This document shows, one piece after another, positions 47,033 through 62,985 of a stretch of DNA of 64,000 nucleotides. Source of the stretch: an uncultured Thermoplasmatales archaeon. Lineage in GTDB: Archaea > Thermoplasmatota > SW-10-69-26. Positions within the stretch are counted from its first letter, which is position 1. Each line of letters begins with the position of its first letter. The notes under the pieces are model-generated. The model was not told the origin of the DNA and ran no database searches. It saw only the letters and a list, made by a program, of their open reading frames with translations. The stretch spans positions 12,014 to 76,013 of the forward strand of contig CAYNEI010000001.1 in NCBI GenBank assembly GCA_964396185.1. The letters are read 5' to 3'. The translations under genes and the position numbers were made by a program.

Positions 47033-48859
47033 GTGGCGAAACACTCCCTCGTCGATCTCTTCCAAGACTCTGCGCGAGCTCACGGCCAGACGCCCGCCAT
47101 GCGCTACAAGCGCCAGGGCACCTGGCACACCGTGACCTACGACGGCATGAAGCGGTTCGTCGAGGATCTGGCCGGCGGGTTGATCAGCCTCGGGCTAGAA
47201 CCCGGAGAGCGCGTGGGCATCTACTCGGCCAACACCCCGGAGTGGATCATCACCGACTACGCCGCGCTGCACTGCGCTGCCGTCACAGCCCCGGTCTACG
47301 ACACCCTCACGGTGGACCAGGCCGCCTACATCCTCAACGACGCCGAGGCCAAGGTCGTGTTCGTTGAGAACGAGGAGAAGCTCGAGGGCGTGCTCTCCAA
47401 GGCCAGCGAGCTCGAGCACCTGGAGCACATCGTCGTCATGGGCCCCGTGCCCGAGGGTTACGAGGCCAAGGACAACATCCTGGGCATGGATGCCCTCTAC
47501 ACCCGGGGACGCACCTACCTCGAGGAGCTCCCGGATCTGCTCCAAGACCGCGTCGATTCCATCGGCCCGAACGATCTGGCTTCGCTGGTCTACACGAGCG
47601 GCACCACCGGCAACCCCAAGGGTGTCATGCTCACCCACAAGAACTTCGCCTCCAACGTCGAGGCGACCCTGCAGGGCCTGCCTATCGCCGAGGAGACCCA
47701 CTTGGCCTTCCTGCCGCTTTGCCACTCGTTCGCGCGCACCGGAGACCAGTTCGTACCCTACTCCTCAGGCTCCACAGTCTGCTTCGCCGAGGGCCTGGAT
47801 GACCTGGCCAAGAACATGCAAGAGGTCCACCCCACCGTGATGCTCTCGGTCCCTCGCCTCTACGAGAAGATGTACGCCAAGATCAAGCAGAGCGTGGACG
47901 AGGGCAGCGCGCTCAAGCAGAAGATCTTCAACTGGTCCATCGAGGTGGGCCGCGAGGTGGCCCACAAGAAGGCCGACGGCGAGGACATCGGTGCTGGGCT
48001 CAGCTTCAAGCACAAGCTTGCCAGCAAGCTCGTGTTCGACAAGCTCAAGGAGACCACCGGCGGCAAGCTCAAGTTCTTCGTCAGCGGCGGGGCCGCGCTG
48101 AGCCCCGAGATCATGGAGTTCTTCGCGTCTGCTGATCTGTGGATCATGCAGGGCTACGGGCTCACCGAGACCAGCCCCGTGCTCACCGCCAACAACCCAG
48201 ACGACTACCGGTTCGGCTCCGTGGGCAAGGCGATCCCTGGTGTCGAGATCCGCATCGACGAGGAGGTCTGGGATGGAAGCGAGGGCGAGGGCGAGATCCA
48301 AGCCCGAGGCCCGAACATCACGCAAGGCTACTACAAATTGCCCGAAGAGACCGAGGCGCTGTTCACCGAGGACGGCTGGCTGCGCACGGGGGATGTGGGC
48401 CGGCTGGACGAGGATGGCTTCCTGTTCATCACGGACCGGCTCAAGCAGATCTTCAAAACCGCCTACGGCAAGTACATCGTGCCCAACAAGCTCGAAACCC
48501 TGCTCACCGACCAGCCCCACATCGCCCAAGCCGTCATCATCGGCGAGGACCGCAAGTACGTGGGCGCGCTCGTCGTGCCGGACTTCGAGCGCCTGGAACC
48601 CTGGGCCACCGAACAGGGCCTCAGCTTCGAGACGCGCGAGGATCTCGTGGCACTCGACGACGTTCACGAGCTCATCTGGGGCGAGGTGGAGAGGGTCAAC
48701 GAGGAGTTGGCGCGCTACGAGCAGATCAAGCGCATCGAGCTGCTCCACCGGGAGCTCGACCAGGAGAACGACGAGCTCACGCCCACCCTCAAGGTCAAGA
48801 TGCGCGTGGTCGAGGACAACTGGGCCGACGAGATCGAGGCGCTCTACCCTGATGCTTGA
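47033..48859 (+). CDS. long-chain-fatty-acid--CoA ligase (AMP-dependent synthetase, FadD-like)
   Basis: Homology begins near VAKHSLVDLFQDSARAHG (GTG 47033; alternative ATG 46970) in track ORF 46094..48859. AMP motif YTSGTTGNPKGVMLTHKN, then GYGLTETS, TGDVG, and a C-terminal ...LTPTLKVKMR block. A TATA-like TTTATCAA lies at 46990. Confidence 0.85.
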   Translation: MAKHSLVDLFQDSARAHGQTPAMRYKRQGTWHTVTYDGMKRFVEDLAGGLISLGLEPGERVGIYSANTPEWIITDYAALHCAAVTAPVYDTLTVDQAAYILNDAEAKVVFVENEEKLEGVLSKASELEHLEHIVVMGPVPEGYEAKDNILGMDALYTRGRTYLEELPDLLQDRVDSIGPNDLASLVYTSGTTGNPKGVMLTHKNFASNVEATLQGLPIAEETHLAFLPLCHSFARTGDQFVPYSSGSTVCFAEGLDDLAKNMQEVHPTVMLSVPRLYEKMYAKIKQSVDEGSALKQKIFNWSIEVGREVAHKKADGEDIGAGLSFKHKLASKLVFDKLKETTGGKLKFFVSGGAALSPEIMEFFASADLWIMQGYGLTETSPVLTANNPDDYRFGSVGKAIPGVEIRIDEEVWDGSEGEGEIQARGPNITQGYYKLPEETEALFTEDGWLRTGDVGRLDEDGFLFITDRLKQIFKTAYGKYIVPNKLETLLTDQPHIAQAVIIGEDRKYVGALVVPDFERLEPWATEQGLSFETREDLVALDDVHELIWGEVERVNEELARYEQIKRIELLHRELDQENDELTPTLKVKMRVVEDNWADEIEALYPDA

Positions 48860-49324
48860 GCGAGGCTGAGCGAGCTCAAGCTCGCCTCTGGGCAGGCGCG
48901 CAAATCCGATGATAGGCCATAGTCTGCAGGCGCTTCGCTACTCCGTGTGGGCAACCATCCTCGCGCCATCCTGGGAGATGCCCTCAACCCATGTGGTTGC
49001 GTCCGAACCTCCTAACCCAGACCAAGGTCTTCGAGGCGGCCGAGAGTCCGCGGAATCCCTGGTTCATCGACCGTGTGGAACCGCGCACCGAGCGACGGAG
49101 CCTAAGCATCTGGGTGCGCTGCAGGTTAGTACGTCCTTACCTAACGGGTGTGCACTGACAGACATAAGCCCTTGACCGAGAACCCTTCCACCGAGCTCAA
49201 CTGAGCGACGTTCCCTCCTGGTAGGCAACCCTCACTTCCACTGGTAGTAGTAGTTTTCAGTCAAGACCACATGAGACCAAAGGGAGCCGATAGGCTTAAC
49301 CCTCGACAACCTATTCGGGATTCC

Positions 49325-50123: not shown

Positions 50124-51542
50124 ACACCCAGGCGGCGGCGCCTTCGAGGACAACTCCGGCAAGGACTGCAACCTGATCACGCCTGAGGCCCTCAAGGCCC
50201 ACACGACGCTCAGCGCCACCTACACCGACTCAGAGGTGAACGCAGCTTCGGCTACCTGGTCGAGGCCCACGACGTGGACATCTACACGGTCCCCCTCGCG
50301 GACACCCAGCAAGGGGTCACCGGGATCATCGGCGATCTGATCCCTGACGACCTGCCCGAGCCCATCGCCGGCCTGATCGAGGCAGCCCAAGAGGCCCTCG
50401 AGGACGGCGCCAGCGATGTCGAGGAGCTCACCGACCCGCTCGTCGAGGAAGCAGACAAGGCCAGCTCGCGCGCTGGACCGACCAAGGCGGCCACCCCAGA
50501 GCCCAACGCGGCCGACGACAACAGCCTCACCATGTCGGCGCTCACGGATGGAACCCGTTGCGACGAGGTGCTGGGTCTGACCCCACCTGGCGGCGAGTCC
50601 AAGAGCTACTACAACCTCATGGACGTCCGCATCGTGCAAGACCCCACGTTCCGCCAAGCCAACTTCGACGGCGTGACGGTCAACGCCCTCAAGGACCCCA
50701 CCGCGCTGGACGGCGACGGCCTGCCGGCCGAGAGCGACGAGCAGAGCCACAACCCATGGCACCCCGGCGCGTACAAGTTCGACGGGCTGCTCAACGTCTT
50801 CCTGGACGGCAACAGCAACGGCCAGTTCGACGCCTGCCCGGTCGACCAGGGCGACGGCCCGAGCCCGGACCTCTGCGTGGCTGATCTCGACTACGACATG
50901 TACGAGGCCAGCGGCGCGATCGGTGACAGCGCCCGCGACAAGAACATGGACGACCCCACGGGGCTCTACTTCGTGCTCAAGGTCACCGGCCCCGTGGCGA
51001 CCTACGACGTCGAGCGCTCAGGGGACCCCGATGAGACCCTGGCGGCTTCCGCGGACCGCACCGTCGTCATGAACGGCGATGGGCTCAACTGCATCGTGGG
51101 CACCACCACGGGGCTGCTCGACCTTGCCCCCGGCGATCTCTTCCGGGAGCTCAACAGCTTGAGCCCCAGTGCAACCGACGAGGACGTCGCCGCCGATCTG
51201 TGCGGCGAGGACGCCGACGACGTGGCCCTGATCAAGGACGCGTTCGCGACCCAGAGCCAGGCCGGCGGCACCCTCAACGACGCCAAGAGCGGCAAGCTGG
51301 CCTCTGCAGTCGGCTTCGTGAAGACCGGCTCCAACGCGGCTGCGCTCAACAACGGCCCGGGCGACGGGCTCACCGTCACCGCGGTGCTCAGCATCCAGGA
51401 CGGCGAGGTGCACTCGGACACGAGCGGGAACATCAACCTCGGCGACAACCCCGCCACGCTCGAGACGACCCTGTCCAACGGTGCTGACGTCTACGTCTGG
51501 ACCGACCACGAGCCCTTCGTGAGCACGGTCAGCGGGTCCTAA
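50124..51542 (+). pseudogene. decayed first member of the paralog array (N-terminal third lost, frameshifts, internal deletion); C-terminal 422 codons still open
   Basis: Frame 0 at 50124-50162 reads HPGGGAFEDNSGK. Frame +1 at 50164-50202 reads DCNLITPEALKAH (compare FGGAFEDGSNKPCNLIHPSDLADH in the last copy). Frame 0 resumes at 50247 with FGYLVEAHDVDIYT, a block that lies ~140 aa further downstream in intact copies. No signal peptide or SD. Confidence 0.65.
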
Positions 51543-51569
51543 GAAACGTGACGCGACTCGCAACCTCCT

Positions 51570-51610
51570 GGCCCGCGCGCCTCGCGCGCGGGCCAAGCTT
51601 CTTTTCTTAT
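51570..51610 (+). terminator. GC hairpin plus T-rich tail
   Basis: GGCCCGCGCGC-ctc-GCGCGCGGGCC (11-bp arms) followed by AAGCTTCTTTTCTTAT, 28 nt after the stop. Confidence 0.55.
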
Positions 51611-51838: not shown

Positions 51839-54286
51839 TTGAAGCGAGCACTCGTGATCCTTCTTGGAGCAACGATGGTGTTGGGGGTTCTTCCCTCGGC
51901 CATCGCTGAGCACAACGCCATCGGCGCGAAGGTAACTGCCGGGAACCCAGACCCTGTTCCCAGCGAGGAACCAGACATCCCCGACGCCATGCGGCCGATC
52001 TACCACGGCGGGGGCGCCCCTGCGCCGACGGTCGTGGACCCGGTCGCCTACCACGGAACCTACCCGCGCGTCTCACCCGAAGACCAGAGCGGTCTCGGGA
52101 TGGGCGAGTGGGTCGGGTACATCAACGGTGTCATCGAGTACGGCCCCAATCCCTTCGTCGCGGGAGCCTTCGACCAGGACAACGACCCGCTTTACCGCGT
52201 GTTCCCAGGGGACGACGCGTACTGCCAGAGCGTCGACGGCAAAGCCGACACCGGCGCTGACCCCGCGGACCCGAGCGACGACCCGTGCGCAGGGACCGGA
52301 CACGGTGTGAGCGTGGATCTCCCGACGAACCACCACCTCCAACAGCACCACATCGACGTGGTTCACCCAGATCGAGAGGGGAGTGGATTCATCTACCCAG
52401 GGTTGTACGATTTCTATGTCTACATCTTCGGGGAGGGCTCCAGCGACGTTCGCCCGGGCAGCGGTGCGTTCGACTACCTCGACGAGAGCCTGTGCGAGGA
52501 CCATCTCGCCAGCCTCAACATCGAGAACAACTTGGGTGACTGCACCCTCATCACCCCCACGGATCTCCAGAACCACGTCAGCAGCACCCTGACGGATGCC
52601 AACGGCGCGACCCAGGAGGCCGCATTCTGCGTGTTCGCACCCCGGTTCTACCAGGTCGGAGGCAGCGACGAGCCGCCGACGTGCCAGAACCGGATGGAGG
52701 ATTACGTCGAGCACACCGGGGCACCGACGTACCTCTCGAACAAGCCGGGCTGGTACGGTGGGAACTTCTTCATCGACCACATCGGCTCGACCGTTGCTGC
52801 CGAGGAAGTGGTTCTGAAGGGCGGTAGCCGCTCGGACATCTCGGCCGGCGGCATGTTCCATTACTACGTGAACCCCGTCCGACCGGTTGCTGAGCTTCGC
52901 TGTGCCTCACCACCTATCTCCACCACCGCCCCCGATAGCCTGGACACCGGGATCACCTTCGATGAAGCCAGCGGCACGTGGGCTGGAGACGGGGCCTTCG
53001 ATTACCTCGTCGAAGCCCACGACGTCGATGTCTACACGGCCATCGACTCCAACGCGGAGCGCCAATTCGTGGTCGACACTGTGAACGAGGTTCTCGATCA
53101 GGTTCCTGGCCTACCCCCCGAGGTCGGCCAACTCATCGATGACGCCATCGATGCAGCCGAGGCCCTGCTTGAGACCACGGACCCCATCGCAGACGCCGCC
53201 GACGAGCTCAGCGGACGGGCCTTCCCGTACACCCTGAACCGCGGGGAGCCCAACAGCGCCGATGACAGCTCGCACCTCTACACCCGGGATGCGACGGTCG
53301 ACATCGGTGTATGCGACGGCGGGCTCAACGACCCGGACAAGGTCGACGGTCTCTCGACCGTGTACTCGAACTACATCCAGGCCGACTACACCACGGGCCA
53401 GATCTTCAACGGCCTCGTGCTCCACGACTACACGGAGCTCGACGGGGAGGGCCTGCCCCGGGACTCCAACGAGCAAGGTTGGAACCCCTGGAACCCCAAC
53501 ACGTACACCTTCGACGGTGAGATCCTCGGCTTCCTGGACCACAACCCCAACGGCCAGCTCGACGCCTGCCCGTCTGGTGGCAACCAGATCGGCGCTGGCC
53601 AGGACCTCTGCGTGGCCCAGATCCGCTGGGACGTGAACAACCCCGACAGCGAGATCCAGGAGGCCAAAACGGAGACGTGGGCCCCCGCGAACGGGTTCGA
53701 CGACTTCACCGGGCTCTACTTCACCCTGAAGCTCACCGGCCCGGTGGCCACCTACGACCTGGAGAACACCCCAGACCAGAACGCCCAGGTCTTCTTCGAC
53801 CGGACCCGACTACTCGCCAGCGAGGGCCAGAACTGCATCGTGGGCATCAGCAAGGGCCTGCTCGACGACCCGGCCAACGACGCGCGGTTCCGCGAGCTCA
53901 TCGGTGCTGCGAGCGGTGAACAGACAGCCACCGACGGCCCCATCACGGACAAGCTGTGTGAGGGCGCTGACGGGGACGTCGCCTTCATCCGCGACGCGTT
54001 CGCCGACCAGGACAGCGCGGGGGACTTCGACGCCGCCTTCGAGTGGGTGAAGCTCTCCGCCACCCCCGAGGCCACCCACCCAGACACGGGCGATGGCCTC
54101 ACCTTCAACGCGGTGATCACCGTGGCCGAGACCGGCGACACGCTCACGGCCGGCAACCTTGAGCTAAGCGCGGCCACAGATGGCACCCCGACCCTGGAGA
54201 AGATCTGGACCGACGAAGATGGCGACAAGACGTTCGTGTGGACCGACCACGACGCCTTCGAGTCCACCCCAGACAACGCTGAGTGA
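51839..54286 (+). CDS. array paralog 2: ~800-aa acidic secreted protein, unknown family (EHN subtype)
   Basis: 815-aa ORF. TTG start 8 nt after GGAGG. Signal MKRALVILLGATMVLGVLPSAIA|EHN. Family blocks YPRVSPEDQSGLGMGEW, NKPGWYGG, FDYLVEAHDVDVYT, DHNPNGQLDACP, FTGLYFTLKLTGPVATYD, QNCIVGISKGLLDD, FVWTDHDAF. Confidence 0.85.
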   Translation: MKRALVILLGATMVLGVLPSAIAEHNAIGAKVTAGNPDPVPSEEPDIPDAMRPIYHGGGAPAPTVVDPVAYHGTYPRVSPEDQSGLGMGEWVGYINGVIEYGPNPFVAGAFDQDNDPLYRVFPGDDAYCQSVDGKADTGADPADPSDDPCAGTGHGVSVDLPTNHHLQQHHIDVVHPDREGSGFIYPGLYDFYVYIFGEGSSDVRPGSGAFDYLDESLCEDHLASLNIENNLGDCTLITPTDLQNHVSSTLTDANGATQEAAFCVFAPRFYQVGGSDEPPTCQNRMEDYVEHTGAPTYLSNKPGWYGGNFFIDHIGSTVAAEEVVLKGGSRSDISAGGMFHYYVNPVRPVAELRCASPPISTTAPDSLDTGITFDEASGTWAGDGAFDYLVEAHDVDVYTAIDSNAERQFVVDTVNEVLDQVPGLPPEVGQLIDDAIDAAEALLETTDPIADAADELSGRAFPYTLNRGEPNSADDSSHLYTRDATVDIGVCDGGLNDPDKVDGLSTVYSNYIQADYTTGQIFNGLVLHDYTELDGEGLPRDSNEQGWNPWNPNTYTFDGEILGFLDHNPNGQLDACPSGGNQIGAGQDLCVAQIRWDVNNPDSEIQEAKTETWAPANGFDDFTGLYFTLKLTGPVATYDLENTPDQNAQVFFDRTRLLASEGQNCIVGISKGLLDDPANDARFRELIGAASGEQTATDGPITDKLCEGADGDVAFIRDAFADQDSAGDFDAAFEWVKLSATPEATHPDTGDGLTFNAVITVAETGDTLTAGNLELSAATDGTPTLEKIWTDEDGDKTFVWTDHDAFESTPDNAE

Positions 54287-54315
54287 ACGCAGCGTCCGGC
54301 GTCCAACACCCACGT

Positions 54316-54360
54316 ACCCGCCCCGGGCCCCTCGGGCGCCCCGGGGCGGGTCTTCTTCTC
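54316..54360 (+). terminator. GC hairpin plus pyrimidine/T-rich tail
   Basis: ACCCGCCCCGGG / CCCGGGGCGGGT 12-bp arms (54316-54327 / 54340-54351), then CTTCTTCTCC. Confidence 0.55.
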
Positions 54361-54503
54361 CTCTCTCCGACGATCCGTTCACGTCCAGCTTTGGAGGGTG
54401 GAACCGAGGCTCAGGTCGCGGAAATGGCTAAGTAGCTGCAACTTAGTGACTCCTTAACACGGTCCCTTGGGTCCACCCACGGGGGCGTGAGGAGGTTGTC
54501 CAA

Positions 54504-56972
54504 ATGCGACGAGGCATCGCGCTCATCCTATGCTTGACGATGGTGCTGTGGGTCTTCCCCACAGCGCTTGCAGAGCACAACAACGCAGGGTACCGGATGA
54601 CGGTCGGTAACCCCGACCCGACCCCGACCGACGAGCCGGACATCCCGGACTCCGATCGGCCCGTTTTCCACGCAGGCGGCGATCCTGCTCCAGTTCTGGC
54701 GCGCGTGATCGCGTTCGAGGGAAGCTACCCGCGACTTTCGCCGGCCGACCAATCCGGCCTGGGGATGGGCGAGTGGATCGGCTACTTCAACGGGGTCGTC
54801 GAGTACATGGCCCCGCAGTTCGGGAGCCTTACCGGGGACGACCCGCTCTACCGGGTCAACTCCGGGGATGACGGGAATTGCCAGACACCCATGCAGAAAC
54901 TCGATACGGGCGCTGACCCGACGAACCCCAACGACGACCCGTGCTCGGGCGCGGGCCATGAATGGCAGTTCGACTTCCAGACGGCGAACTTCGTCCAACA
55001 ACACCACGCCGATCCGGTTAGCCCCGTCATCAGCGGAGGGGATCCCCTCAGTGGGTTCCTCCTCCCGGCGATGTACGACTTCTACGTCTACTTCTTCGGT
55101 GAGGGCTCCAGCGAGACCCGGCCCGGTGTTGGGACCCTGGACTACCTCGATGAGGACCTCTGCGACAAGCACCTTGCGAAGCTCGGGATCACCAACAACC
55201 TGGCTGACTGCACCCTGATCACGCCGGATGACCTCAACGGCCACCTTGGCCTCACGGATGCCAACGGTCAGGCCCAGGACGCGGCCATCTGCCAGTTCGC
55301 GCCCCGCTTCTTCCAGGTGGGCGGCGGCGACGAGCCCCCAACCTGCCAGAACTTCGTGGATAACTTCTACGACGAGTCCGGCCAAACGGGGTACATCACG
55401 AACAAGCCCGGTTGGTACGGCGGCCTCTGGTTCATCGACTACATGGGCTCGACGATCACCGCCGAGAACGTGGTCGTCAAGGAGGGTGTCCGCCAGGACA
55501 TCTCGGGCACGGGTCACTTCCACTTCTACGTGAACCCGGTCCGTCCTGATGCCGCGCTGCGCTGCGCCTCGCCCCCCATCTCCACCGACGCGCCTGACAG
55601 CCTGGATACCGGGACGGTGTTCGACGAGGAGACCGGGAGGTGGAGCGATGCCACGTTCGACTACCTCGTCGAGGCCCACGACGTCGATATGTACACGGGC
55701 GTGAAGGACCTGGGCGGGACCATCAACGACGCCGTGGATGAGGCCAACCGCGTCATCGGTGAGGTGCTCGACGAGATCCCCAACCTCCCCCCAGAGGTCG
55801 GCCAACTGATCGACGACACCATCGATGACGCCCAGAGTGCTGTGGACACTCTCCTAGAGACCACGGACCCCATCGCCGATGCGGCCAACGAGTTCAGCGG
55901 GCGGGCGTTCCCCTACACGCTCAACCGGGCCGAGCCCAACCACAACCTGGACGACTCGTACGCCTACTCGACGAGCGCCTCGGTCCAACTCGGCGTGTGC
56001 GACGGTGGCCTCCACGACCCCGCCGAGGTCGACGGCGTGGACACGAACTACTTCAACTACGTCCAGGCCGACTACACCACGGGCCAGGTCTTCAATGGCC
56101 TCGTCCTCCACGACTACACAGAGCTCGATGGAGAGGGCCTGCCCCGGGACTCCAACGAGCAAGGTTGGAACCCCTGGAACCCCAACACGTACACCTTCGA
56201 CGGTGAGATCCTCGGCTTCCTGGACCACAACCCCAACGGCCAGCTCGACGCCTGCCCGTCTGGTGGCAACCAGATCGGCGCTGGCCAGGACCTCTGCGTG
56301 GCCCAGATCCGCTGGGACGTGAACAACCCCGACAGCGAGATCCAGGAGGCCAAAACGGAGACGTGGGCCCCCGCGAACGGGTTCGACGACTTCACCGGGC
56401 TCTACTTCACCCTGAAGCTCACCGGCCCGGTAGCCACCTATGACCTGGAGAACACGCCCGACGAGGATCAGGCCACCTTCCTCGACCGGACCCGGGTGCT
56501 CTCCAGCGACGGCCAGAACTGCATCGTGGGCATCAGCAAGGGCCTGCTCGACGACCCGGCCACCGACGCCCGCTTCCGCACGCTGATCGGCGCTGGGAGC
56601 GGTGCACAGGGCCCGAACGCGGGCCCCATCACCGACGTTCTTTGCGAGGGTGCGGACGGGGACGTCGCGTTCATCAGCGACGCGTTCTTCGACCAGGGCA
56701 GTGCAGGCGACTTCGATGCTGCCTTCGAGTGGGTCAAGCTCTCCGCGACCCCTGAGGCCACCCACCCCGACATCGGGGATGGCCTCACGTTCAACGCGGT
56801 GATCACCGTTGCCGAGACCGGCGACACGCTCACGGCCGGCAACCTCGACTTGAGCAACGCCGAGCCCGGCGCGCCCACCCTCGAGAAGATCTGGTCTGAG
56901 GAGGACGGCGACATGACGTTCGTCTGGACCGACCACGACGCCTTCGAGTCCACCCCAGACAACGCTGAGTGA
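54504..56972 (+). CDS. array paralog 3: ~800-aa acidic secreted protein, unknown family (EHN subtype)
   Basis: 822-aa ORF. ATG 9 nt after GGAGG. Signal MRRGIALILCLTMVLWVFPTALA|EHN. Collinear with paralog 2 throughout. Confidence 0.85.
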   Translation: MRRGIALILCLTMVLWVFPTALAEHNNAGYRMTVGNPDPTPTDEPDIPDSDRPVFHAGGDPAPVLARVIAFEGSYPRLSPADQSGLGMGEWIGYFNGVVEYMAPQFGSLTGDDPLYRVNSGDDGNCQTPMQKLDTGADPTNPNDDPCSGAGHEWQFDFQTANFVQQHHADPVSPVISGGDPLSGFLLPAMYDFYVYFFGEGSSETRPGVGTLDYLDEDLCDKHLAKLGITNNLADCTLITPDDLNGHLGLTDANGQAQDAAICQFAPRFFQVGGGDEPPTCQNFVDNFYDESGQTGYITNKPGWYGGLWFIDYMGSTITAENVVVKEGVRQDISGTGHFHFYVNPVRPDAALRCASPPISTDAPDSLDTGTVFDEETGRWSDATFDYLVEAHDVDMYTGVKDLGGTINDAVDEANRVIGEVLDEIPNLPPEVGQLIDDTIDDAQSAVDTLLETTDPIADAANEFSGRAFPYTLNRAEPNHNLDDSYAYSTSASVQLGVCDGGLHDPAEVDGVDTNYFNYVQADYTTGQVFNGLVLHDYTELDGEGLPRDSNEQGWNPWNPNTYTFDGEILGFLDHNPNGQLDACPSGGNQIGAGQDLCVAQIRWDVNNPDSEIQEAKTETWAPANGFDDFTGLYFTLKLTGPVATYDLENTPDEDQATFLDRTRVLSSDGQNCIVGISKGLLDDPATDARFRTLIGAGSGAQGPNAGPITDVLCEGADGDVAFISDAFFDQGSAGDFDAAFEWVKLSATPEATHPDIGDGLTFNAVITVAETGDTLTAGNLDLSNAEPGAPTLEKIWSEEDGDMTFVWTDHDAFESTPDNAE

Positions 56973-57001
56973 ACGCAGCGTGCGGCGTCCAACAACCACG
57001 T

Positions 57002-57046
57002 ACCCGCCCCGGGCCCCTCGGGCGCCCCGGGGCGGGTCTTCCTCTT
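57002..57046 (+). terminator. GC hairpin plus pyrimidine/T-rich tail (same hairpin as 54316-54351)
   Basis: ACCCGCCCCGGG / CCCGGGGCGGGT arms at 57002-57013 / 57026-57037, then CTTCCTCTTCTCC. Confidence 0.55.
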
Positions 57047-57246
57047 CTCCATCCTTGCTTCCCTCTCTGCTCTAGGCGTGGGCCTCGTCCAGCCAACCGG
57101 TGGCGCGCCGCAGGCACGAACCGCTGGCGATCCCTGGGGAGTTAACCGGTGTCACTCAGATCGCTGCAGAGCCAACGGTTAAGCCATGAGGCCCCCATCG
57201 TGGGCCCGAGAGGCTGGCCACGCGCGTGGCCATGGGAGGCCCAAAG

Positions 57247-59577
57247 ATGCGAACCGGGATCGTGTTGCTCATCGGCTTGGTGACCCTGCTCAGTGGGCTC
57301 AGCCCAGCGCTTGCCCACCACAACGACGTGGGCGCGCGCTTCGCGGTTGGCAACCCGGACCCGGGGGTCTCGGACGAGCCGAACACGCGCGACGGGCTCC
57401 GGCCGGTCTACCACGCCGGAGGATCCCCGCCGACCCTGGCCTTCGTTGGCGACTACCCACGCCTCTCGCCGGCCGACCAGAGCGGGCTGGGCATGGGCGA
57501 CTGGATCGGCGTCATCGACGGCGTGGTCGAGACCTTCAGCGACGGGTTCGGCCAATGCGTGTTCAACCCGAGCTTCTTGGGCTGCAACCGCGACACGGAC
57601 CCCCTTTACCGCGCCAACCCCGCCAGCGACCACGGGGCCTGCCAGGGGGCCACCGAGCGTCTAGCGTCCGAGTGCGATGGGAGCGGGCACCCCTGGAAGC
57701 TGGATATCTGGCCAGGCGCGCGCGTGCAAGCCCAGCACTACGATGTTGTCGGCGGTGACGGGGCCGGGTTCCAGTTCCCAGGCAGCTACAGCTTCTATTT
57801 GTACCTCTTCGGCGACGGGAGCGGGGTGGCCGCCGGCCAGGGCACCTTCGACTACCTCGACCCTGACGAGCTTTGCGGCGAGACAACAGGCGCGGACACC
57901 TGCGCGCTGATCACTCCTGAGGATCTCAGCGACCACCTGCCCCCTGGCGCGGTGCCGGCGGTCTGCTTCTTCGCGCCCCAGTTCTTCCCGCTCACCCAGG
58001 CGTCCGATCTCGGCGAGTGCGCCCGGCAGAGCCGCTTCGACCAGTACATGGCGGACTCGGACTCCACCTTGTACCTAGCCAACAAGCCGGGCTGGTACGC
58101 CACGGCAGCCCTCGACGACCCCTTCGCGTCCACCCTCTCCTGGGCCAGCGTGCTCACCAAGGAGGGGGACCAGGACCACGTGTCCAACGTCTTCCACTTC
58201 TACGTCAACCCGGAGCCCCTGCCGTCCGAGAAATGGTGCGGGGCCCTGCCCGTGGCTACCTTGGCCACAGACAAGCTCGACACCGGTGTCCAGCCGGGGA
58301 TCGATGGGGGCTGGGTGGAGGGTGATCCCATCGCCTGGAACCTCCAGGGCCACGACCTGGACGTCTACACCAGCCCCACGAGCGATGCCAACGGGGCCCT
58401 CCAGCAAGCCGTCCAGGGCCTGCTCGACGAGCTGCCCACCCTGCCGCCTGGCCTCCAGGGGGTGGTGGACCAGGTTGGGGAGACGACCGTGGACACCCTG
58501 GACGAGGTGGGTCGCACCACCGACCCCTTCGTGGAGGCAACCCTCACGGCCGGCCAGCGCTTCGTAGCGATCAAGAGCGACGATGCCGGCCCCAACCACC
58601 CGCTGGACAACAGCCTCACGCTCTCGGCTCCCTCAGAGGGTCAGCAGTGCAGCTCGCTGGCGGGACTGGCTCGGGATGCCACCGGTCGCACCCACTTCTA
58701 CAACTACGTCGAGGCCGACATCCAGGGCATCACGCTCAAGGATCCCACGCACCTCGACGAGGACGGCCTTCCGGCCAAGGCCGACGAGCAGGGCTACAAC
58801 CCCTGGCACCCCCAGCAGTACACCTTCGGCGGCGAGCTCATCGTCTTCGACGACCGCAACGGCAACGTCCAGCGCGACGCCTGCCCCCAGGGCAACGATG
58901 CCCCAGACGAGTTCAGCCCGGACATCTGCGCGGCCCGGCTGCCGTGGGACCTCTCCAACCCAGAGGCCACCGCTGGCCAGGGCGCCAGCCTGGCCACCTT
59001 CGCGCGCGACAGGGGCTTCACCGACCCCACCGGCCTCTACTTCGTGCTCAACCTCACCGGCCGCCACCTCATCACCGACACCGAGCCCCCCACCGGCACC
59101 AGTGAGCTCGACCGCACCCAGCAGCGCAGCCGAGTGCTCATCACCGGCGGCCAACACTGCATCGTGGGCACCAGCAAGGGCCTGCTCGACGGGATCAGCG
59201 GCTCACGGTTGGCCACCACCCTAGGTCTGCCCAACCTCTCCGAGGCCGCGCTGCTGGACCACCTGTGCAGCGACGCCACGGGCGAGCGCATCCTGCTCGA
59301 GGACGGCTTCGAGGATCAGAGCCAGCTCGGCGAGATCGACGCCGGCATCGCCTGGACCAAGCTCTCGGCCACCCCAGATGTCTCCCTGAGCACCGACGAC
59401 GGGCTCACGCTCCATGCCCTTGTCACGGTGGAGGCCGACGGGGATGAGCTCACCCGGGGCAACCTGGAGCTGGGCACGGGCACCACGGCCACCCAGATCG
59501 CCACGTGGCAGGATGGCAGTGCCGTGAGCTACCGGTGGACGGACGTGGAGCTGTTCAGCTCGGAGCCGGCTGAGTAA
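57247..59577 (+). CDS. array paralog 4: acidic secreted protein, unknown family (HHN/THN subtype)
   Basis: ATG at 57247, 7 nt after GGGAGG (track ORF starts at 57226). Signal MRTGIVLLIGLVTLLSGLSPALA|HHN. 776 aa. It shares the family blocks but has subtype-specific WPGARVQAQHYD and YLYLFGDG. Confidence 0.8.
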   Translation: MRTGIVLLIGLVTLLSGLSPALAHHNDVGARFAVGNPDPGVSDEPNTRDGLRPVYHAGGSPPTLAFVGDYPRLSPADQSGLGMGDWIGVIDGVVETFSDGFGQCVFNPSFLGCNRDTDPLYRANPASDHGACQGATERLASECDGSGHPWKLDIWPGARVQAQHYDVVGGDGAGFQFPGSYSFYLYLFGDGSGVAAGQGTFDYLDPDELCGETTGADTCALITPEDLSDHLPPGAVPAVCFFAPQFFPLTQASDLGECARQSRFDQYMADSDSTLYLANKPGWYATAALDDPFASTLSWASVLTKEGDQDHVSNVFHFYVNPEPLPSEKWCGALPVATLATDKLDTGVQPGIDGGWVEGDPIAWNLQGHDLDVYTSPTSDANGALQQAVQGLLDELPTLPPGLQGVVDQVGETTVDTLDEVGRTTDPFVEATLTAGQRFVAIKSDDAGPNHPLDNSLTLSAPSEGQQCSSLAGLARDATGRTHFYNYVEADIQGITLKDPTHLDEDGLPAKADEQGYNPWHPQQYTFGGELIVFDDRNGNVQRDACPQGNDAPDEFSPDICAARLPWDLSNPEATAGQGASLATFARDRGFTDPTGLYFVLNLTGRHLITDTEPPTGTSELDRTQQRSRVLITGGQHCIVGTSKGLLDGISGSRLATTLGLPNLSEAALLDHLCSDATGERILLEDGFEDQSQLGEIDAGIAWTKLSATPDVSLSTDDGLTLHALVTVEADGDELTRGNLELGTGTTATQIATWQDGSAVSYRWTDVELFSSEPAE

Positions 59578-60491: not shown

Positions 60492-62921
60492 ATGAAGAAG
60501 ACGTTCATCATCTTGATCGGGCTGACGATGGTACTCACCACCGTCCCCGCCAGTTTCGCAGAGCACAACACCATCGGGTACGGCACCACCGCCGGCAGCC
60601 CGGATCCTGTCCCAAGCGACGAGCCGGATGTCCGAGATGGGGGTCTCCCCGTCTACCACGCCGGCGCGACCCCGCCGACTGGCAGCCCGACCGCCGCGTT
60701 CGAAGGGACCTACCCGCGCATCTCGCCGCCCGACCAGAGCGGTCTGGGCATGGGCGAGTGGATCGGGTTCATCGACGGTGTCGTCGAGTACCCGGGCCAG
60801 CTCGCCATCACGCCGACCAACCCCAACGACCCGCTCTACCGGGTCAGCCCCGGCGACGATGAGAACTGCGAGACCAATGAGCAGAAGCTGGATACGGGGG
60901 AGAACCCCGCCGACCCGAGCGACGATCCGTGCGCTGGAACCGACCACCGGACCGCGGTTCGCGTCCACTACGGTCACCTCTACCAGCAGCACAACATGGA
61001 TCATGTGAGCCCCGTTCTGAGCGATGACCCGCTCAGCGGGTTCCTGTTCCCTGGCTTGTACAACATGTACGTCTACCTGTTCGGGGATGGCACCAGCGAC
61101 CACCGCGCTGGCGAGGGTGCGTTCGACTACCTCCCAGCGAGCCTCTGCGACGACCACCTGGCCAAGCTCGGGATCACGAACAACCTGCCAGTTGAGGGCG
61201 ACCACGGCAAGTGCAGGCTCATCACTGCAGACGACCTGGAGAACCCGCTCGGGCTCGACGAGACCGACGCGCTGGGTACGCCGCAGAAGCCGAAGGTGTG
61301 CTCGTTCGCCCCCTGGTTCTTCGAGACCGGCAGCGACCCCAACCCCCCGGTCTGCCAGTTCGAGATCCCGGACTTCGTTGACAGCGAGGGAACGTTCTAC
61401 ATCTCGAACAAGCCCGGCTGGTACGACCCGATCCCGTACATCGACCAGTTCGGCAGCTTCGTCAACCACCCGGAAGGGATGACCGCCGACGGGATCCGCA
61501 GCGATCTGACCTACGGTCACTTCTCGTTCTACGTGAACCCGGTGCGACCCGCCGGTGCGCTGCGCTGCGCGGCCCCGCCGATCTCCACGTTCGCCGACGA
61601 CGCGCTGGACAGCGGCGTGAGCTTCGACGAGGAGACCGGGAAGTGGACCACCTCGGACGCTCCAGAGTTCGAGTACATCGTCGAGGCCTACGACATCGAC
61701 CTGTACACCGCCATCGATTCCACCCCGGCCCAGGAGCTTGTCCAACAAGTCCAGGACCTGATCCCCGATCTGCCCGAGCCGATCGAACAGCTCATCGAGG
61801 CAGTCGAGGACGAGGCGGACACGGTGCTCGATCCAGCCTCCGAGGCGAGTGGCCGGCTCTTCCCGTACACCCTGAACCGCGCAGAGCCGAACAGCGATGA
61901 GGACAACTCATTCACGCTCGAGCGCGCATCGGATGTGCCGCTGGGTGTCTGCCTTGACGGGCTCAACGACCCCGCCGAGGTCGATGGCGAATCGCCCAAC
62001 TTCCTGAACTACATCCAGGCCACCTACACCACAGGCCAGACTTTCAACGGCCTCGTGCTCCACGACTACACGGAGCTCGACGAGAGCGGCCTGCCCCGGG
62101 ATGCCGACGAGCAAGGCTACAACCCGTGGAACCCCAACACGTACTCGTTCAACGGCGACGTCATGGGTTTCCTGGACCGCAACCCCGATGGCGAGTTCAA
62201 CGGGTGCCCGACCTCGGGCAACCAGCCCACGCCGAGCCAGGACATCTGTGAGGCTTTGATCGTGTGGGACGTCAACAACGAGAACAGCGAGATCCAATCC
62301 GTCGAAACACCAACCTGGGCAGCCCAGAACGGCTGGGACTCCTTCACCGGGCTCTACTTCACCCTGAAGGTCACCGGCCCGGTGGCCACCTACGACGCCG
62401 AGAATACCCCGAACGAGAACCAGGCCGTGTTCGAGGATCGGACCCAGGTGCTCGAGAGCCCGGGCCAGAATTGCATCGTGGGTACCAGCAAGGGCCTACT
62501 CGACGACGCGACCACGGCCACGCGGTTCATGGAGATCATCGGCGCCGAGGGCCAGACCGCCAGCGAAGCGAACATCCTCGCGACCCTCTGCGGCGGCGCT
62601 GACGGGGACACCGCGTTGATCCGTGACGCGTTCTTCGACCAGAACGACGAGGGCGACTTCGCGGCCGCCTTCGAGTGGGTCAAGCTCGCCCCCACCCCCG
62701 AGGGCACCCACCCAGATACCGGCGACGGGCTCACGCTCAACGCCGTGCTCACGGTGGTCGCCGACGGGGACACCCTGACCGGGGACAACCTGGACCTGGC
62801 CTCGTTCGAGGAGCCCACGCCGACCCTCAAGAGCGTTTGGGAGGACGACGGGGACAAGACGTTCGTGTGGACCGACCACGACGCCTTCGACTCGGATCCC
62901 TACCAGCCCGACGAGGAGTGA
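60492..62921 (+). CDS. array paralog 5: ~800-aa acidic secreted protein, unknown family (EHN subtype)
   Basis: 809-aa ORF. ATG 9 nt after GGAGG. Signal MKKTFIILIGLTMVLTTVPASFA|EHN. All family blocks present. Confidence 0.85.
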   Translation: MKKTFIILIGLTMVLTTVPASFAEHNTIGYGTTAGSPDPVPSDEPDVRDGGLPVYHAGATPPTGSPTAAFEGTYPRISPPDQSGLGMGEWIGFIDGVVEYPGQLAITPTNPNDPLYRVSPGDDENCETNEQKLDTGENPADPSDDPCAGTDHRTAVRVHYGHLYQQHNMDHVSPVLSDDPLSGFLFPGLYNMYVYLFGDGTSDHRAGEGAFDYLPASLCDDHLAKLGITNNLPVEGDHGKCRLITADDLENPLGLDETDALGTPQKPKVCSFAPWFFETGSDPNPPVCQFEIPDFVDSEGTFYISNKPGWYDPIPYIDQFGSFVNHPEGMTADGIRSDLTYGHFSFYVNPVRPAGALRCAAPPISTFADDALDSGVSFDEETGKWTTSDAPEFEYIVEAYDIDLYTAIDSTPAQELVQQVQDLIPDLPEPIEQLIEAVEDEADTVLDPASEASGRLFPYTLNRAEPNSDEDNSFTLERASDVPLGVCLDGLNDPAEVDGESPNFLNYIQATYTTGQTFNGLVLHDYTELDESGLPRDADEQGYNPWNPNTYSFNGDVMGFLDRNPDGEFNGCPTSGNQPTPSQDICEALIVWDVNNENSEIQSVETPTWAAQNGWDSFTGLYFTLKVTGPVATYDAENTPNENQAVFEDRTQVLESPGQNCIVGTSKGLLDDATTATRFMEIIGAEGQTASEANILATLCGGADGDTALIRDAFFDQNDEGDFAAAFEWVKLAPTPEGTHPDTGDGLTLNAVLTVVADGDTLTGDNLDLASFEEPTPTLKSVWEDDGDKTFVWTDHDAFDSDPYQPDEE

Positions 62922-62940
62922 GGTTCCTCGCCACCTCTTC

Positions 62941-62985
62941 GGCCCGCGCCCGGTGCGCGGGCCGATCCCTTTTCTTCTTCTCTCG
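62941..62985 (+). terminator. GC hairpin plus T-rich tail
   Basis: GGCCCGCGC-ccggt-GCGCGGGCC (9-bp arms) followed by GATCCCTTTTCTTCTTCTC, 20 nt after the stop. Confidence 0.55.

Follow-up and report, generated by a model that had tools for sequence, protein, structure and literature searches.

The tufA and tufB genes of Salmonella and the chaperonin subunit genes of euryarchaea are well-known duplicates shaped by gene conversion or concerted evolution. A second kind of system, represented by pilE/pilS of Neisseria and vlsE of Borrelia, uses segmental gene conversion for cassette-based antigenic variation. The locus described here is a tandem array of genes for secreted proteins in an uncultured halophilic archaeon of the Thermoplasmatota (assembly GCA_964396185.1), and we focus on two neighboring members, paralogs 2 and 3 (p2 and p3), which are direct repeats 2.7 kb apart. 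The window, meaning the whole stretch of 64,000 nucleotides (nt) that was analyzed, corresponds to C1:12014-76013, where C1 is contig CAYNEI010000001.1. Within otherwise diverged sequence, p2 and p3 share a perfectly identical tract of 299 nt. We consider it likely that this mosaic arose by recent gene conversion, in the sense of non-reciprocal homologous recombination between neighboring copies.

Gene conversion between paralogs has been documented in both archaea and bacteria (PMC4632066; PMC6053082; PMC11276520). For example, tandem mtrA copies in methanogens undergo gene conversion and concerted evolution (PMC4632066), and concerted evolution has recurred in 26 prokaryotic genes (PMC6053082). 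The p2/p3 pair resembles these cases in that divergence between paralogs has been erased, even at synonymous sites, within a tract that has diverged flanks, that the center of the tract falls where conservation of the gene is highest, and that it is detectable by a test of the GENECONV type. The difference lies in the setting, because those cases involve housekeeping genes, whereas p2 and p3 reside in a tandem array whose 11 copies encode secreted proteins of an orphan family. In Haloferax volcanii, intermolecular gene conversion equalizes the chromosome copies of polyploid haloarchaea (PMC11276520). This organism is likewise an archaeon with very acidic proteins, and efficient recombination or conversion of this sort would supply the enzymatic basis for the exchange considered here. 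However, conversion in H. volcanii is allelic and takes place between chromosomes, whereas the p2/p3 exchange would be ectopic, between paralogs of a Thermoplasmatota archaeon.

As in the pilE/pilS and vlsE systems, the locus comprises an array of diverged paralogs for surface or secreted proteins, with short tracts that are anchored in conserved sequence. Unlike those systems, its copies are full-length and there is no single expression site served by silent cassettes. Moreover, the p2/p3 tract homogenizes a conserved module and imports no variation. The pair is a clean new example of a process that is already known, here in an unusual family of genes, and it reveals no new mechanism.

An exact tract between diverged neighboring genes

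In the one assembly of the locus, positions 53447-53745 equal positions 56133-56431 base for base, at an offset of 2686. This identity had been noticed in a sequence-only reading of the window and proved exact on recomputation, as did the six mismatches that were counted in the 54 nt immediately upstream (53393-53446), which fall at 53402, 53410, 53419, 53434, 53443, and 53446. The first mismatches on either side of the tract are at 53446 and 53746. At the same offset, the next exact runs are 57, 52, and 46 nt long, and in a comparison of all 66 paralog pairs the exact run that ranks after the tract measures 44 nt. All of the five nearest mismatches upstream (53410-53446) and the four nearest downstream (53746-53773) are synonymous, and no amino acid differs between the p2 and p3 proteins along a stretch of about 125 residues (53403-53776), 100 of them within the exact tract. 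The tract makes up approximately 12% of the gene, the bulk of which has gone on diverging (with about one synonymous substitution per synonymous site, dS). The same reading had cited identical antisense open reading frames (ORFs) in the two copies. Their coordinates do correspond, but their sequences are not fully identical because the mismatches at 53434, 53443, and 53446 lie inside them.

Profiles of dS and of third-position identity were computed from a codon alignment of all copies. Over the first 1.5 kb, p2 and p3 share 60-75% of their nucleotides and 43-70% of their third positions, and dS is 0.96. Identity rises to 91% (dS 0.37) in a short shell immediately upstream of the tract (53369-53446), reaches 100% in the tract itself, third positions included (dS 0), and falls again to 82% (dS 0.54) in the segment located between this tract and a second one farther downstream. 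Thus, the p2-p3 profile is not uniform.

The closest third copy, paralog 5 (p5), serves as a yardstick for how much divergence the tract columns tolerate. In these columns, no more than 66-81% of p5 nucleotides agree with the tract (65-70% at third positions), with a dS of 0.51-0.54 and 0.26 nonsynonymous substitutions per nonsynonymous site, and p4 is more distant than p5. Indeed, p5, p4, and the other copies differ from the tract at no fewer than 30-35% of third positions. A patch with a dS of 0 that is enclosed by flanks with values of 0.37-0.96, and that differs from p5 by about 30%, supports the original proposal of gene conversion between p2 and p3.

Chance estimates were made per window on the assumption of 18% mismatches, as in the diverged segment that separates the two tracts. 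On this basis, the probability of finding no mismatch among 299 positions is about 1e-26, and that of finding at most two among the 117 positions of the second tract is about 3e-8. The recombination test that had been suggested for the copies was carried out as a GENECONV-style permutation of polymorphic columns, both for the set of p2, p3, and p5 and for a set of 11 copies, and it is significant for p2/p3. In the three-copy set, 75 consecutive polymorphic sites are concordant, compared with a permuted maximum of 17. The corresponding values for the 11-copy set are 245 and 49 (global P<=0.0003). The two genes therefore form a statistically significant mosaic, and constraint at the level of the protein or the nucleotide sequence is insufficient to account for it.

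Sites that are informative within the p2/p3/p5 trio give a similar picture. Over the first 750 nt (51839-52588 and the counterparts in p3 and p5) they are star-like, with a ratio of 98:94:100. Beyond this point the grouping of p2 with p3 is favored by about 2:1:1, and in the tract all 75 sites favor it. The N-terminal parts of the three genes are either saturated or of different history.

The sequence-only reading had also reported a second tract that carries only two differences at the same offset. This tract was recovered at 54239-54355, where 54296 and 54309 are the two differing positions. It takes in the final 15 codons (45 coding nt) and the stop codon, as well as the 3' untranslated region and a GC-rich hairpin. 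It runs 69 nt beyond the stop codon into noncoding DNA, where p5 is not alignable, and from 54356 on p2-p3 identity at offset 2686 drops to 30%. Because the second tract lies within a shell of higher p2-p3 similarity that extends for about 1 kb (about 53370-54355), the homogenization probably involved two or more events that were separated in time.

From this pattern we infer the mechanism, the number of events, and their recency. A 299-nt segment of one copy would have been overwritten by that of the other, which would erase all differences, including synonymous ones. The responsible process could be RadA-type recombination acting within a chromosome or between chromosome copies. An older homogenization may have extended over roughly 53370-54355, perhaps with participation of p5 near 53370-53446, and a very recent patch would have been laid on top of it. 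The most conserved module is also where diverged repeats are expected to find enough homology for recombination. Neither the resemblance of the flanks to p5 nor the third-position A/T content of p2 and p3 pointed to either copy as donor or recipient. The visible effect is homogenization. The shuffling of variants that had been suggested is not visible at the protein level, because the two proteins already agree at about 125 consecutive residues in and around the tract.

Assembly, crossing-over, and constraint as alternatives

Several points weigh against recent gene conversion as the explanation. First, the topology ((p2,p3),p5) is the same in all three segments for which trees were constructed, and the signal is a discontinuity in distance rather than a topological conflict. 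The p2-p3 patristic distance is 0.52 in the 5' segment, 0.00 in the tract, and 0.22 in the 3' segment, and distances to p5 are comparable. Second, the locus is known from a single assembly, and no second assembly or related strain was found. Third, this assembly looks like the product of SPAdes or metaSPAdes at k=55, and these programs replace the variants in a bulge by one consensus path. Any differences that lie at least 55 nt from each end of the tract (its inner ~189 nt), and that have exact anchors of 55 nt or more on either side, could therefore be masked. Finally, nowhere in the genome does an isolated mismatch occur between two exact runs of at least 55 nt, and so there is no positive proof that the assembly keeps enclosed differences.

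The last two points open the way for an alternative in which the conversion is older, the copies are merely very similar, and bulge masking made the run artificially perfect. A total of 122 contig ends share a terminal 55-mer with another contig end, whereas none do so at k=21, 31, 77, 99, 127, or 141. The genome also contains 58 runs of N, nearly all exactly 100 long. This signature suggests short-read scaffolds made by SPAdes or metaSPAdes with a maximum k of 55, and metaSPAdes is reported to mask bulges "more aggressively" than SPAdes, collapsing larger ones (PMC5411777). Exact repeats shared by different contigs reach at most 181 nt. Furthermore, in the five long intra-contig repeat pairs of the genome, the main run is always at least 285 nt, the other runs on the same diagonal reach at most 57 nt, and nothing falls between. 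Such a gap would be expected if enclosed differences had been masked.

However, masking requires exact anchors of at least 55 nt on both sides, and so the outer 55 nt at each end of the tract must be truly identical. Even one 55-nt anchor has a probability of only about 2e-5 per start at the local mismatch rate, which means that the region is anomalously similar regardless. The flanks already encode identical protein, with synonymous differences only, and a 773-nt perfect tract located elsewhere in the genome cannot be one masked bulge. A masking artifact could make the event look younger, but could not create it. We therefore judge it unlikely that the exactness of the tract was manufactured during assembly.

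The same considerations bear on how the sequence between the tracts should be read. Two runs of at least 55 nt are shared by p2 and p3 (299 and 57 nt). Because such runs flank positions 53746-54238, the assignment of this segment to p2 rather than p3 rests, at k=55, on read pairs. The order of the parts is not in doubt, because a linear path through a direct repeat that is present twice (A-R-B-R-C) can be traversed completely in just one way. More generally, exact repeats longer than k in metagenome-assembled genomes (MAGs) produced by metaSPAdes need read-level confirmation.

Crossing-over offers another route to mosaic genes. The tract could reflect a reciprocal double crossover in which sister chromosomes, or copies of the chromosome, were misaligned, or it could be the residue of unequal crossing-over followed by re-duplication. 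Tandem direct repeats at this spacing are substrates for unequal exchange, and the change from a star-like trio in the first 750 nt to the grouping of p2 with p3 afterward indicates mosaic histories. Yet a single unequal crossover yields one hybrid junction and a change in copy number, not an internal patch with diverged flanks on both sides, and a reciprocal double exchange would swap the differing sequences instead of rendering both identical. This origin is accordingly very improbable. Sequence constraint by an RNA element, an overlapping antisense gene, or extreme codon selection is effectively refuted, because the same columns diverge in p5 and p4 and selection cannot explain the identity; although the tract codes for the motifs in which the family's proteins vary least, and antisense ORFs are present (as everywhere in this 66% GC DNA), the identity stops abruptly at synonymous mismatches on both sides, and an Rfam search of the tract region returned no family.

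Exchange signals across the array and the genome

Gene conversion between p2 and p3 may not have been the only exchange in the array. In the upstream shell, p2 is nearer to p5 than to p3 (dS 0.13 versus 0.37), and this shell is likely to be the residue of an older exchange among p2, p3, and p5. In addition, p2 and p5 share a 40-nt exact run (53405-53444; about 62043-62082 in p5) that ends just before the tract. Upstream and downstream of the tract there are also sites at which p3 departs from a base common to p2 and p5, a hint of an older exchange that involved p5.

When all 11 copies were permuted, the p2-p5 and p7-p9 tracts were borderline (global P ~0.015). The p7 and p9 genes are 77% identical and are mutual closest relatives, although p8 sits between them, and their longest exact run (44 nt) is located within the same conserved module as the p2-p3 tract. 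The arrays of this family in one genome of a sister genus contain no long identical tracts. The description of conversion as ongoing between array members was therefore overstated, given that only the p2/p3 signal is strong.

Elsewhere in the genome, four exact intra-contig direct repeats of at least 285 nt were found, all at short offsets (see the table below). Three lie between adjacent diverged genes, and one is between repeats inside a single gene. The longest, on contig C11, covers 18 nt upstream and the first ~250 codons of both genes. Apart from the repeat, the two proteins are at most about 50-60% identical. Just beyond the tract, identity at its offset is ~50-65%, and farther on it is 20-30%, which makes this pair a stronger mosaic than p2/p3. 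The mature proteins of the C2 pair begin with AHSN, which echoes the x-H-N start of the array proteins, but the families differ. Local homogenization of tandem repeats looks like a property of this organism, or of its assembly. The presence of several tandem pairs with freshly homogenized tracts hints that homologous recombination works efficiently in this uncultured lineage of the Thermoplasmatota.

One consequence is that the members of the array do not evolve independently, and therefore family trees and divergence dates must be built by segment. A more far-reaching idea is that the array serves as a standing recombination system, in which the 299-nt module, present in every copy, anchors exchange of the variable N- and C-terminal parts. 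We regard this as improbable. If it were true, a population would hold a repertoire of mosaic secreted or surface proteins that resembles antigenic variation, directed for example against viruses or competitors, and the perfect tracts in other tandem pairs of secreted-protein genes would belong to the same strategy. Programmed variation of the cassette type, as in pilE/pilS, was considered and rejected: p2 through p5, like the copies that lie outside the window, are complete genes that carry a start codon, a signal peptide, and a 3' hairpin of their own, and truncation is confined to p1.

The array, its proteins, and its 3' hairpins

The host genome, a short-read MAG, comprises 3.17 Mb in 181 contigs and is 89.5% complete. 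GC content is ~66%, and the encoded proteins are very acidic. The host PurL shares 71% of its residues with the PurL of "Thermoplasmatales archaeon SW_10_69_26," and other best matches are to Thermoplasmatota MAGs. By these matches, the host, uncultured and high in GC, is a Thermoplasmatota archaeon and not a haloarchaeon. The array runs on one strand from 50.2 kb to the end of the window and then for ~16.5 kb more. There are 12 homologous genes in the genome, with 11 in the array (C1:62251-92508) and one at C1:148644. Each full array copy encodes a signal peptide followed by x-H-N, ~800 residues in all, and conserved cysteines.

Table 1. Coordinates of array genes, p2-p3 segments, 3' hairpins, and long exact repeats. 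Positions are those of the window unless a contig label (C1, C2, C11, C68) precedes them.
Feature	Position	Strand	Remarks
p1	50274-51542	+	only C-terminal half survives
p2	51839-54286	+	815 amino acids (aa); TTG start; signal peptide then AEHN; secreted acidic orphan protein
p3	54504-56972	+	822 aa; overall identity to p2 76% (nt) and 72% (aa)
p4	57226-59577	+	array member
p5	60492-62921	+	closest third copy to p2/p3
p6	63200 onward	+	array member
p7	C1:78095-80614		array copy outside the window
p9	C1:83658-86186		array copy outside the window
Upstream shell	53369-53446	+	7 p2-p3 mismatches
299-nt exact tract, p2 copy	53447-53745	+	codons 537-636
299-nt exact tract, p3 copy	56133-56431	+	codons 544-643
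Diverged segment between tracts	53746-54238	+	493 nt; 89 p2-p3 mismatches
Second near-identical tract, p2	54239-54355	+	117 nt
Second-tract partner, p3 3' end	56925-57041	+	pairs with 54239-54355
Hairpin after p1	51569-51595		
Hairpin after p2	54316-54351	+	then pyrimidine run 54352-54370
Hairpin after p3	57002-57037		sequence identical to 54316-54351
Hairpin after p5	62939-62965		
773-nt perfect repeat	C11:46641-47413 and 48098-48870		offset 1457; adjacent 465/466-aa lipobox (LAGC) proteins
461-nt perfect tract	C2:75811-76271 and 78056-78516		offset 2245; adjacent ~350-aa secreted proteins, mature N-terminus AHSN
352-nt perfect direct repeat	C1:2634	-	offset 627; repeats inside one 1609-aa subtilase-like ORF upstream of the window
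285-nt perfect direct repeat	C68:10296		offset 1063

The array proteins appear to form an orphan family. Neither Pfam (E<=0.01) nor NCBIfam (E<=0.1) yielded a family for p2 or p3, and a profile built from seven copies retrieved only 42 proteins at E<=0.001 from 1.84 billion representatives. Among 40 relatives, the family is present in one genome only, from the sister genus, at ~30% identity. Exact-protein look-ups for p2 and p3 found no other copy, and a word-indexed protein search returned solely this genome's own copies. Scans of genome contigs and metagenome contigs with the family alignment found no relatives, and a degenerate DNA pattern for the FLDHNPNGQLDACP peptide had no match in metagenome contigs.

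The tract encodes EQGWNPW, the DHNPNGQLDACP loop, two family-invariant cysteines, and TGLYFTLKLTGP, which together represent the best-conserved module of the family. An AlphaFold model made with 40 family members is of fair quality, with a predicted local distance difference test score (pLDDT) of 75 and a predicted template modeling score of 0.72, whereas seven sequences gave a pLDDT of only 31. The tract region is modeled with confidence (pLDDT ~71-95 for residues 540-640). A Foldseek search of the model against the PDB produced no fold match (best E 0.58, TM <=0.12). The region had initially been labeled a calcium loop. However, DHNPNGQLDACP, encoded at 53537-53572, merely resembles a Ca-binding loop motif, and the assignment as a thrombospondin type-3 or EF-hand-like calcium loop was set aside because neither Pfam nor NCBIfam yielded a match for the region and the model has no PDB counterpart.

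Strong GC-rich hairpins that are followed by a pyrimidine- or T-rich run occur after p1, p2, p3, and p5. These structures look like bacterial terminators, here in an archaeon. Their sequences differ among p1, p2/p3, and p5, and are alike only between p2 and p3.

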